Positions 32,977 to 37,087 of a DNA stretch of 39,735 nucleotides are shown in pieces. Source of the stretch: Escherichia phage AV103; the sequence record OR352934.1. The stretch is one strand, 5' to 3'. The notes under the pieces were generated by a model. It worked only from the letters and a program-made list of their open reading frames with translations. It was not told the origin of the DNA and did no database searches. Both the position numbers and the translations under genes were made by a program. Numbering within the stretch: position 1 is the stretch's first letter; each line of letters opens with the position of its first letter.

Positions 32977-35628
32977 TTACGCGAACGCGAAGTCTGACTT
33001 AAGGATGTCTTGGAGATTCAAGTTACCTTTAGCCGGAAGTGCTGGCATTTTGTCCAATTGAGACTCATGCAACTGGTCAGCGAACTGGTCGTAGAAGTCA
33101 GCCAGTACATCACAAGACTCATAGGTGTCAACCATAGTTTCGCGCACAGCTTTGAACAGGTTGGCAGCGTCAGCAGGAATGGTCCCGAAGGAGTCGTGAA
33201 TCAATGCAAACGATTCGATTCCGTACTTCTCATGTGCCCACACTACAGTCTTACGCAGATGACTACCATCTTGGCTATGTACAAAGTTAGGAGCTATGCC
33301 GGACTCCTGCTTGTGCGCATCAATCTCGCTATCCTTGTTTGTGTTAATGGTTGGCTGTAGACGGAACTGACCGAGGAAAATCAGGTTCAAGCGAGTCTGA
33401 ATTGGCTTCTTGTATTCCTGCCACACAGGGAAGCCATCAGGAGTTACCCAGTGTACAGCGCAACGCTTGCGTAGAATCTCTCCAGTCTTCTTATCTTTGA
33501 CCTCAGCAGCCAGCAGCTTAGCAGCGGATTTAAGCCAGTTCATTGCTTCAACCGCAGCCACCACCGTGACACTCACAGCTTCCCAAATCAGTTTAGCCAT
33601 ATAACCAGCAGCCTGATTAGGTTGAGTGAACATCAGACCTTTACCGGAATCAATAGCTGGCTGAATGGTATCTTCCAGCACTTGTTGACGGAAGCCGAAC
33701 TCTTTGGACCCGTAAGCCAGCGTCATGACTGAACGCTTAGTCACGCTGCGAGTAACACCGTAAGCCAGCCATTGACCAGCCAGCGCCTTAGTGCCCAGTT
33801 TGACTTTCTCAGAGATTTCACCAGTGTTCTCATCGGTCACGGTAACTACTTCGTTGTCGGTCCCGTTGATTATGTCTTCTTGCAGAATCGCATTGACTTT
33901 CTTAGCAACAATCCCATAGATGTCCTGAACGGTTTCACTAGGCAGCAGGTTAACCGCACGACCACCTACCTCATCGCGGAGCATCGCAGAGAAGTGCTGA
34001 ATGCCGGAGCAAGACCCATCGAACGCCAGTGGAAGAGAGCAGTTGTAGCTAAGACCATGGTGCTGTACCCCAGCGTACTCAAAGCAGAACGCAAGGAAGC
34101 AGAACGGAGAATCTTGCTCAGCCCACCAAGTGTTCTCCAGTGGAGACTTAGCGCAAGCCATGATGTTATCGTGGTTGTCCTCAATGAACTTGATGCGCTC
34201 AGGGAACGGAACCTTATCGACACCCGCACAGTTTGCACCGTGGATTTTCAACCAGTAGTAACCTTCCTTGCCGATTGGTTTACCTTTAGCCAGCGTCAGC
34301 AGTCCTTTGGTCATATCGTTACCTTGCGGGTTGAACATTGACACAGCGTAAACACGACCGCGCCAGTCCATGTTGTAAGGGAACCAGATGGCCTTATGGT
34401 TAGCGAACTTATTGGCTTGCTCAAGCATGAACTCTAAGCTGATACGGCGAGACTTGCGAGCCTTATCCTTGCGGTACACAGCAGCAGCAGCACGTTTCCA
34501 TGCGGTGAGAGCCTCAGGATTCGTGTCGATGTCTTCCGGTTTCATCGGGAGTTCTTCACGTTCAATCGCTGGGATGTCCTCGACAGGGCAGTGCTTCCAC
34601 TTGGTGATTACGTTGGCGACCGCTAGGACTTTCTTGTTGATTTTCCATGCGGTGTTTTGCGCAATGTTAATCGCCTTGTACACCTCAGGCATGTAAACGT
34701 CTTCGTAGCGCATCAGTGCTTTCTTGCTGTGAGTACGTACCAGTGCCAGAGGACGGCGACCGTTAGCCCAATATCCACCACCAGTAATACCAGTCCACGG
34801 CTTAGGAGGAACTACGCAAGGCTGGAACATCGGAGAGATACCAGCCAGTGCACCAGCACGAGTAGCGATAGCCTCAGCGTATTCCGGTGTGAGTTCGATA
34901 GTCTCAGAGTCTTGCCCGACTACGCCAGCGTTTTGACGATGTAAGCTAACCATTCCGGTTGACTCAATGAGCATCTCAATGCAGCGCACACCTACGTGAA
35001 TGGAGTCTTCCTTGTGCCACGAAGACCACGCCTCGCCACCCAGTAGACCCTTAGAGAGCATGTCAGCTTCGACAACCTGCATGAATGCTTTCTTGTAGAC
35101 GTGCCCTACGCGCTTGTTAAGCTGTTCCTCAACGTTTTTCTTGAAGTGCTTAGCTTCAAGGTCACGGATTCGACCAAAGCGCGCCTCGTCCTCAATAGCT
35201 CGACCAATTGCACTTGCTACAGCCTGAACGGTTGTATTGTCTGCGCTAGTGAGGCAAGCCAGAGTTGTCTTAATGGTGATGTACGCTATCGCTTCCGGCT
35301 TGATTTCTTGCAGGAACTGGAAGGCTGTCGGGCGTTTGCCGCGCTTAGCTTTCACTTCCTCAAACCAATCGTTGATGCGTGCAATCATCTTAGGGAGCAG
35401 GGTAGTAATGAGAGGCTTGGCGGCAGCGTTATCCGCAACCTCACCAGCTTTAAGTTGACGCTCAAACATCTTGCGGAAGCGTGCTTCACCCATCTCGTAA
35501 GACTCATGCTCAAGGGCCAACTGCTCGCGAGCTAAACGCTCACCGTAATGGTCAGCCAGAGTGTTGAACGGGATAGCAGCCAGTTCGATATCAGAGAAGT
35601 CGTTCTTAGCGATGTTAATCGTGTTCAT
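32977..35628 (-). CDS. 1: T7-type single-subunit DNA-directed RNA polymerase, 883 aa
   Basis: 883-aa ORF MNTINIAKNDFSDIELAAIPFNTLADHYGERLAREQLALEHESYEMGEARFRKMFERQLKAGEVADNAA...; matches the promoter specificity of all 17 promoters. Confidence 0.97.
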   Translation of the reverse strand: MNTINIAKNDFSDIELAAIPFNTLADHYGERLAREQLALEHESYEMGEARFRKMFERQLKAGEVADNAAAKPLITTLLPKMIARINDWFEEVKAKRGKRPTAFQFLQEIKPEAIAYITIKTTLACLTSADNTTVQAVASAIGRAIEDEARFGRIRDLEAKHFKKNVEEQLNKRVGHVYKKAFMQVVEADMLSKGLLGGEAWSSWHKEDSIHVGVRCIEMLIESTGMVSLHRQNAGVVGQDSETIELTPEYAEAIATRAGALAGISPMFQPCVVPPKPWTGITGGGYWANGRRPLALVRTHSKKALMRYEDVYMPEVYKAINIAQNTAWKINKKVLAVANVITKWKHCPVEDIPAIEREELPMKPEDIDTNPEALTAWKRAAAAVYRKDKARKSRRISLEFMLEQANKFANHKAIWFPYNMDWRGRVYAVSMFNPQGNDMTKGLLTLAKGKPIGKEGYYWLKIHGANCAGVDKVPFPERIKFIEDNHDNIMACAKSPLENTWWAEQDSPFCFLAFCFEYAGVQHHGLSYNCSLPLAFDGSCSGIQHFSAMLRDEVGGRAVNLLPSETVQDIYGIVAKKVNAILQEDIINGTDNEVVTVTDENTGEISEKVKLGTKALAGQWLAYGVTRSVTKRSVMTLAYGSKEFGFRQQVLEDTIQPAIDSGKGLMFTQPNQAAGYMAKLIWEAVSVTVVAAVEAMNWLKSAAKLLAAEVKDKKTGEILRKRCAVHWVTPDGFPVWQEYKKPIQTRLNLIFLGQFRLQPTINTNKDSEIDAHKQESGIAPNFVHSQDGSHLRKTVVWAHEKYGIESFALIHDSFGTIPADAANLFKAVRETMVDTYESCDVLADFYDQFADQLHESQLDKMPALPAKGNLNLQDILKSDFAFA

Positions 35629-35702: not shown

Positions 35703-36782
35703 TCAGCCCATTAATCTTGCGTCAAGTTGCTTGTCGATGTTGAGCGGAAGACCGTTAGCGATAGCCGTGCGGTCAGCTTGGACCCAGTGCGCCGCTACTC
35801 GTTCCTCAAGCGCCTTAAAGTCCTTAGCGAGCATGTTGACCCAGAGCATAGCGTTATCGGTCCTTCCTAGTACATCTACAGCTCTCTCATGGTTACGTCG
35901 TTCTTGACGTTCAGCCATTCGCCACGCAGCAACCATTCGCTTGTGCTTCGCTTGGTGTGCTTTACGTGCCTTACGGTTATGGCGCTTTACTTTGCGTGCC
36001 TCCAATCGACCCACATGACGTGCTTTTCGTTCCTTAGCGCGGTCGATTTCTTTCTGTCGTGCGACTTCCTCGACTTCCTTGATGAGTTCCTCTGGGTCAA
36101 TACTGAATGCGCCACCGTCTTTCTTCTGCGAGAATGACACGGGGTCGGTAATGAATGGTGTATCATCGTCGCTGAACATGATGTTCCCGCTGTGCATGTC
36201 GAACGAAGCGATGCCCTCAAAGAACTTGCGGATTAGCTTGCAAGTTTCGACGAACTCGCCATCCCATCCAGTCAACCCATCATGCTCATCTGATTTGTAG
36301 TCAATGATGTCACTTGCAATCTCAGCGTATTTATAATGCTCATCGTTATCGTAACGGTCGCAATCGTTCAGTGCATCAAGTACCACCGTATAGCATCCAG
36401 CGTGACGCTGTACATCGTAGACGTTAGGGATACCAGCGCGACCTTGATACATGCGGCAGAATGCGGTATACGCAGCGCCTGAGTCCTCTTTCTTAAAGCC
36501 CACCTTAATCACCCTGTTAGGCAGCAGCGGGTGGCTATAAGCAGCCGAGAAGTGACCATTACCGAGCATCTTAAACCCCGCGTCAGTCGTGAGACACTTC
36601 AAGGTAGTCCACCAGTCTTGAAACTCAAGTGCCTGATTCAGTTCGGTTAGCTCTCCATCGCGTGTTTCGCTGTTGACCATCTCGACCAGTAAGTCGATAA
36701 GCATCCCTTGACGCTTGTCAAGTTCACAGATTGGAAGTGCTTTGATTGCGTCGATAGCGTTCATGATGTCGATAGCGTTCAC
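35703..36782 (-). CDS. 0.7: Serine/threonine protein kinase / host shut-off protein, about 359 aa
   Basis: Kinase-like N-terminal half and basic C-terminal half; start inferred at GTG 36782 with SD GGAG; alternative ATG at 36764. Confidence 0.85.
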
Positions 36783-36801
36783 TTTGTGTATTCTCCAAAA
36801 G

Positions 36802-36939
36802 TTAGATGTTGTTGAGCTTGCGGTTGATTCGCAGTTCACGCTTAAGGCGTTCGATTCGCTGTTTCATTGCGAACCCATCAGGTGTGCATACAGTTGCCCC
36901 GTTGGGCGTGTGTATAGGCATAACGTAGTGTTTCAGCAT
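36802..36939 (-). CDS. Gene 0.6-like small protein, 45 aa
   Basis: [45 protein letters not shown]; ATG overlaps the preceding ORF stop (ATGCTGA). Confidence 0.5.
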
Positions 36940-37061
36940 TTGCGCATTGCTCCCGTGACGGTGCAAGCCACCAAGTAAGCGCCTACAGCTACACCCAAAG
37001 ACTTCCCAAAGGATGCGCCTACAGCTAGACCTAGAGCGGTGAGTAGTCCGATAGTAAGCAT
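36933..37061 (-). CDS. Gene 0.5-like small hydrophobic membrane protein, about 42 aa
   Basis: [42 protein letters not shown] with SD GGAG; downstream of an RNase III hairpin. Confidence 0.45.
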   Translation of the reverse strand: MLTIGLLTALGLAVGASFGKSLGVAVGAYLVACTVTGAMRKC

Positions 37062-37087
37062 ATGCATTACTCCAATTCAAGTAAAGT

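Follow-up and report, generated by a model that had tools for sequence, protein, structure and literature searches.

The protein kinase gene 0.7 of Escherichia phage AV103 probably starts at a GTG codon behind a GGAG Shine–Dalgarno sequence

The main translation start of gene 0.7 in phage AV103 is most probably the GTG codon whose first base lies at position 36782, a reading to which we assign a probability of about 0.88 on the basis of comparative sequence evidence. An earlier note on this DNA had placed the kinase start at the same codon, and this placement is supported by the homology of the start position to those of other kinase genes, by the presence of the sole credible Shine–Dalgarno (SD) sequence, and by conservation in the relatives that carry the same leader. 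AV103 (GenBank OR352934) is a Teseptimavirus of 39,735 bp obtained from wastewater, with JeanTinguely as its closest relative (PMC10844046). The window, i.e., the whole stretch of 39,735 nucleotides that was analysed, presents the genome in reverse orientation, and the features of the kinase region are all on the minus strand. They are as follows:

32977..35628, minus strand: gene 1, RNA polymerase (open reading frame and profile match)
35703..36782, minus strand: gene 0.7, T7-type Ser/Thr protein kinase with host shut-off domain (GTG-start open reading frame, 359 aa plus stop)
35703..36839, minus strand: mechanical longest open reading frame, 378 aa, GTG-initiated (open reading frame list)
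36762..36764, minus strand: in-frame ATG, codon 7 (Met7), rejected as main start (SD duplex of only -1.8 kcal/mol)
36780..36782, minus strand: GTG initiation codon, proposed true start (homologous to kinase ATG starts and invariant in relatives)
36783..36792, minus strand: A-rich spacer of 10 nt between SD and GTG (sequence reading)
36793..36796, minus strand: GGAG Shine–Dalgarno core (duplex of -6.4 kcal/mol with the 16S 3′ end, invariant in relatives)
36802..36939, minus strand: gene 0.6A-like, 45 aa (PHROG 8393, E=8.6e-28)
36837..36839, minus strand: upstream in-frame GTG, rejected (opens the mechanical 378-aa frame, inside the 0.6-like coding sequence)
36933..37067, minus strand: gene 0.5-like, 44 aa (open reading frame list)

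Identity of the kinase and anatomy of its start

By sequence comparison, the gene 0.7 product of AV103 is a kinase of the T7 gp0.7 type, collinear with gp0.7. The alignment to T7 gp0.7 that the earlier note had proposed as a check was carried out from the GTG and gave 88.6% identity with zero gaps over 359 aa in each protein. The profile of PHROG 2828, annotated as serine-threonine kinase, matches with E=2.7e-170, residues 1–359 lying on profile positions 1–366 of 366, and the match to the protein read from the GTG begins at profile position 1. Homology to the family (PHROG 2828, Pfam PF27024 Phage_T7_kinase) is thereby found from end to end, including the N-terminus. Numbered from the GTG, Gly76 and the DPV motif at 213–215 are retained in register with T7 gp0.7. 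In PMC13645617, these are described as catalytic residues of the T7 kinase, with G76F being catalytically dead, and the boundary of the kinase domain is set at 1–242, followed by the host shut-off domain. The C-terminal host shut-off region is retained in AV103 too, as the gap-free alignment runs on to residue 359.

PF27024 is recorded for P0007, a protein of the same cluster as the AV103 kinase, and PF26851 (Phage_T7_0_6) for the 0.6 gene of identical length in the contig L100. A local Pfam-A scan of the kinase, 0.6-like and 0.5-like proteins returned zero matches, and precomputed tables give PF27024, PF26851 and PF26813 for near-identical proteins, so that the two Pfam sources differ in release. 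Among solved structures, none was related by sequence to the kinase.

The early region is syntenic with that of T7, the kinase lying downstream of the 0.5-like and 0.6-like genes and directly upstream of gene 1. T7 gene 0.7 (gp0.7 or T7K, UniProt P00513; NC_001604, 2021..3100) occupies the same place between 0.6 and gene 1, has the same length, G76 and DPV motif, and has its start codon at the homologous position. The two genes differ in how they are initiated, with an ATG behind AAGGA and a 9-nt spacer in T7, and a GTG behind GGAG and a 10-nt spacer in AV103. They also differ in what precedes them, as T7 has a 0.6B/0.65 segment of which AV103 lacks about 228 bp.

In AV103, the 0.6-like gene ends with TAA at 36804–36802, 19 nt upstream of the GTG. 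The GGAG occupies 36796–36793 and the spacer 36792–36783, in agreement with the earlier note, which had described a GGAG 10 nt 5′ of the codon. The T7 N-terminus given there, MNITDIM, is correct according to the T7 record NC_001604, and the GTG indeed aligns with it, being homologous to the start codon of gp0.7; residues 3–4 are AI in AV103 where T7 has IT. The coordinates given for the first in-frame ATG were equally right, since position 36764 is codon 7, from which the protein would be six residues shorter. The 378-aa frame does overlap the 0.6-like gene, by 38 nt. Further upstream, the 0.5-like and 0.6-like genes overlap at ATGCTGA (36933–36939, minus strand), with the 0.6 start on the 0.5 stop, an overlap that is typical of translationally coupled genes. 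At 45 aa, the 0.6-like protein stops short of the 53 aa of T7 gp0.6A, and a gp0.6B frameshift product is impossible in AV103.

The pairing of the leader with the 16S 3′ end separates the candidate codons clearly, with energies of -6.4 kcal/mol for GTG 36782, -1.8 for ATG 36764 and -0.6 for GTG 36839. No SD weaker than -2 is found among the 57 annotated T7 genes. In these genes, the distance between a GGAG and the start ranges from 2 to 11 nt and measures 9–11 nt in 16 of the 48 GGAG sites upstream of annotated genes, so the 10-nt spacer of AV103 falls within the T7 range as well as within the functional distance of about 5–13 nt. By a rough estimate, a GGAG would stand at a usable distance from a given codon by chance in a few percent of cases only, which suggests that the SD at GTG 36782 exceeds chance expectation. 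In the record of Serratia phage Pila, the GGAG is marked as ribosome-binding site. The initiation region is less structured than shuffled controls (minimum free energy -14.1, shuffled mean -18.6, z=+1.47), and both SD and start codon are unpaired in the centroid structure. In general, GTG is a weaker initiation codon than ATG. Still, six of the 57 annotated T7 genes (2.8, 6.3, 7.7, 17.5, 19 and 19.2; NC_001604) start with it, indicating that GTG initiation is routine in the T7 phage group; like AV103 gene 0.7, they have their GTG behind an SD, but T7's own gene 0.7 is not among them. Judged by codon, pairing, distance and accessibility, GTG 36782 has the properties expected of a Shine–Dalgarno-led initiation site.

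Initiation would then proceed by pairing of the 30S subunit with GGAG 36796–36793, so that the GTG, 10 nt further on in an unstructured, A-rich leader, receives the initiator tRNA. Ribosomes that end the 0.6-like gene 19 nt upstream may contribute by re-initiating at the GTG. The product would be the 359-aa kinase collinear with T7 gp0.7, and the GTG would probably be its sole start.

Start codons in related phages and the competing candidates

Kinase loci were compared from several sources, namely 80 from IMG/VR together with GenBank records, five metagenome contigs and Logan assemblies. An ATG stands at aligned codon 1 in 66 of the 80 IMG/VR loci, which comprise T7 proper, T3-like, K11-like and more distant phages, and AAGGA, or a sequence close to it, precedes the ATG by about 9 nt in nearly all of these 66. 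In two of the 80 the protein match stops short of codon 1, and the remaining 12 are T7-like, a few of them duplicating GenBank records that were fetched separately. Counting other records along with the 66 loci outside the GTG subclade, there are 72 ATG-type kinase genes, and in all of them the ATG start is homologous to GTG 36782. At the ATG loci the N-terminus reads M-N-[YI]-T-D-[MI], with codons 2–5 conserved as N-[YI]-T-D and codon 7 not being Met. The presence of ATG at the aligned codon 1 across these loci indicates that the homologous start in AV103 is the GTG, not Met7.

T7-like leaders are of two types, which are perfectly linked to the start codon. The leader A[AC]AGGA is followed by ATG in 11 distinct contexts (T7, N30, L012, NC-A, L092, UFV01, Yanou, Bas102, WX2 and others), and the leader TGGAGAA by GTG in about 20 distinct contexts. 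The metagenome scan contributed five loci, all agreeing with the other sequences. Teseptimaviruses of the second type, among them 3A_8767 (NC_048004), CICC 80001 (NC_027387), Pila, Bas64 and Bas65, share the architecture of AV103: the stop of 0.6A or another upstream gene, TGGAGAA, 9–10 nt, GTG, and the kinase. Compared with AV103, this subclade shows point differences only in the spacer and in codons 2–6. A site-by-site comparison of 16 distinct relatives shows no variation in either GGAG or GTG, both of which also occur in the further leader-bearing relatives; the spacer between them is variable, including a 1-nt indel. GTG 36782 is the sole start candidate that is kept in all of the about 20 relatives with the GGAG leader. 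In both Pila and HZ2R8, no other start-type codon lies between the preceding stop and this GTG.

The unit of GGAG and GTG accompanies gene 0.7 even where a different gene lies upstream, as in L093, Bas104 and JeanTinguely. In these three an unrelated 65-aa hydrophobic protein replaces 0.6 (Bas104, L163 297–494; JeanTinguely, also called Bas64, L165 859–1056; metagenome contig L093), and similarity to AV103 resumes about 16–20 nt before the GTG, placing a mosaic boundary just upstream of the GGAG. Some relatives have an additional in-frame ATG two to three codons 5′ of the GTG, i.e., 64795_ec1 (L086, NC_031114.1), SYGE1 (P0004) and CICC 80001 (L003). With only 1–3 nt between it and the GGAG, this ATG is too near to be served by that SD. 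AV103 does not have it and reads ATA or CAC there instead.

L100–L103, four contigs of up to 39.6 kb that each come from a different sequencing run, have a 70-nt leader near-identical to that of AV103 and fully identical in the 48 nt before the GTG. They read ATA at codon 7, with no in-frame ATG before codon 27. Since T7 can do without gene 0.7, the intact frame in these contigs is no proof of function.

The 5′ end of gene 0.7 additionally contains a short repeat:

36747..36782, minus strand: two imperfect 18-nt tandem copies, GTGAACGCTATCGACATC / ATGAACGCTATCGACGCA (sequence reading)

The GTG and the ATG of codon 7 occupy equivalent positions in the two copies. The same segment (36747–36782, minus strand) contains GAACGCTATCGAC, 13 nt that are repeated exactly and in direct orientation with a spacing of 18 nt, encoding NAID...NAID. 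A repeat search returned only a loose pair with an 18-nt period at 36739–36774, with 72% and a register shifted by 8 nt; Tandem Repeats Finder detected no repeat at the start of gene 0.7. Where T7 has ATTACC, the first copy in AV103 has GCTATC, which may reflect conversion of the first copy by the second. All phages in which the AI version was seen carry the GTG leader.

That translation starts solely at ATG 36764, giving a 353-aa kinase and leaving the GTG and the next 15 nt as untranslated leader, is very improbable. An ATG is the stronger initiation codon, the leader is unstructured, and the depositors of EFA-2 and phiCFP-1 chose Met7. In addition, the substitution pattern at codons 2–6 is relaxed within the GTG subclade: variable sites at codon positions 1/2/3 number 3/2/1 there, dominated by the IT/AI block swap, compared to 4/3/11 in codons 8–30. 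By itself, such a local pattern is no proof of translation of codons 2–6. However, the GGAG stands 28 nt from this ATG, and the remaining duplex of -1.8 kcal/mol is of a weakness seen in no annotated T7 gene. The codon itself varies among relatives, being ATA in L100–L103, ACG in NC-A and GTG in Bas102 (both of the ATG type), and CAA or CAG, i.e., Gln, in T3-like phages. The 18 nt between GTG and Met7 are free of indels and stops in about 20 relatives, and the 353-aa sequence is absent from a public collection of about 15 billion proteins. Met7 was rejected as main start for its lack of an SD and for its replacement by ATA, ACG or GTG in relatives. A mixed situation, in which most ribosomes would start at the GTG and a measurable minority at Met7 to give two isoforms six residues apart, is unlikely as well. 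It would fit a GTG that is only a moderate start, having a 4-nt SD with a spacer at the long end, an in-frame ATG located downstream in an unstructured, A-rich region, and the equivalent positions of both codons in the imperfect repeat. Yet Met7 has no SD, several relatives dispense with it, and nothing hints at a function for a form that is shorter by six residues.

Initiation at the upstream GTG 36839, from which a 378-aa protein overlapping the end of the 0.6-like gene would result, has a negligible probability. It is the first start-type codon in the open frame and the same GTG is present in seven relatives, but its SD duplex amounts to -0.6 kcal/mol and its bases, read in another frame, fall within the codons for the conserved KRELRI of gene 0.6. 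Of the 16 GGAG-leader contexts scanned, 9 have in-frame stops between this codon and the kinase frame. No kinase homologue has an equivalent of the 19 additional residues, and the 378-aa sequence is absent from the same protein collection. The 378-aa frame was rejected on three of these grounds, i.e., no SD, a location inside the conserved 0.6 coding sequence, and the in-frame stops in relatives.

A possible origin of the GTG leader

The leader with AAGGA, 9 nt and ATG is common to T7, K11-like and T3-like phages and can therefore be regarded as ancestral, with the GGAG–GTG leader being derived in the subclade. The members of this subclade lack 228–231 bp that are found in T7 and NC-A, comprising the body of the 0.65/0.6B frame and the old leader of 0.7. 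What is left next to the GTG may be traced to gene 0.65:

36781..36798, minus strand: TTGGAGAATACACAAAGT, probably what remains of codons 1–6 of gene 0.65 (source of the SD, the spacer and the GT of the GTG)

Compared with the head of 0.65 in NC-A, ATGGAAAATACCGAAGGT, this segment has 13 ungapped matches out of 18, and the two occupy corresponding positions downstream of the 0.6A stop. Identity falls to 1/6 right after the match. Two of the mismatches, GAA/GAG and ACC/ACA, are third-position differences when read in the 0.65 frame. At a single offset, at least 13 of 18 bases would agree by chance with a probability of about 3e-4. Descent of the GGAG leader from the ancestral 0.7 leader, AAGGACACAA, was considered and rejected, the 6 ungapped matches out of 21 being at chance level. 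The match followed by the sudden drop, taken together with the chance-level similarity to the 0.7 leader, points to a deletion end-point inside the start codon.

It is somewhat more probable than its opposite that one deletion of about 230 bp gave rise to the GTG and its SD at the same time, after which the leader spread as a mobile unit through many T7-like phages. With this deletion would have gone the body of 0.65 (the 0.6B region) and the ancestral AAGGA...ATG leader of 0.7, and the first six codons of 0.65 would have been joined, out of frame, to the 0.7 start codon. By this route, the old ATG GAG of 0.65 would have become the GGAG ribosome-binding site, and the new GTG would consist of G and T from codon 6 of 0.65 and G from the old ATG, with the end-point of the deletion within the start codon. 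The re-armed initiation region of gene 0.7 would be makeshift and probably weaker.

NC-A is the only intact relative found with a similar 0.65 head; the head of the hypothesised parent would read ATGGAGAATACACAAAGGT... A search for an intact parent with a 0.65 gene beginning TGGAGAAYRCACAAAG gave 58 IMG/VR matches, each of which either belonged to the deletion subclade or was due to chance. The leftover 0.65 frame is open from TTG 36798 for 24 codons to a TGA (36724–36798, minus strand), overlapping the 0.7 start out of frame. The leader-bearing relatives all have TTG or CTG in place of the old 0.65 ATG, and the leftover frame is probably not translated. In Yersinia phage vB_YenP_WX2 (OP219460.1; L096 369–824), a 151-aa Cys/His-rich frame is present between 0.6 and 0.7. 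It has the arrangement CxxC ... HSH ... CxxC, resembles a homing nuclease of the HNH or endonuclease VII kind, and is annotated as protein kinase. From these sequence comparisons, the junction between 0.6 and 0.7 appears to be a hot spot for insertions and deletions.

Annotation and expression of the kinase

The GTG start is already annotated in the record of AV103 itself and in those of many relatives, and is in that sense nothing new. WPK33070.1, serine/threonine kinase [Escherichia phage AV103], is exactly the 359-aa version from the GTG, and a length of 359 aa is found in 13 of 15 members of the 90% cluster among the matches listed. The kinase is annotated from the GTG in AV103, 3A_8767, CICC 80001, KKE5P, PGX1, Pila, WW2, Bas64, Bas65 and Bas104, from Met7 in EFA-2 and phiCFP-1, which have the same or nearly the same leader, and from the ATG two codons upstream in 64795_ec1 (RefSeq, 361 aa) and SYGE1. 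RefSeq itself is inconsistent, annotating 64795_ec1 from the upstream ATG and CICC 80001 from the GTG. The record named Enterococcus phage EFA-2 (MT350293.1) is about 94% identical to AV103 around gene 0.7, and its deposited host, Enterococcus faecalis, is implausible for a Teseptimavirus.

In the literature searched, no paper was found that gives the N-terminal sequence of gp0.7 or initiation profiling. Expression data are available for two relatives, i.e., Bas64 (JeanTinguely) and Bas65 (JacobBurckhardt), both of which carry GGAG, 10 nt and GTG. According to PMC13645617, the kinases of both were found in expression proteomics and drove extensive (mass) phosphorylation upon infection. The GGAG–GTG leader thus drives the expression of an active kinase. 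Kinase activity in infection has been demonstrated by experiment for T7, Bas64 and Bas65 (PMC13645617).

A phage specialist would find nothing surprising in a GTG start. The value of the comparison lies in annotation hygiene, as the records of relatives disagree and the comparison favours 359 aa and the numbering of T7. This numbering matters because G76, DPV213–215 and the domain 1–242 are under study as parts of an anti-defence weapon (PMC13645617). For the biology of the GTG subclade, the combination of a GTG codon and an SD of 4 nt may imply a reduced dosage of the kinase.
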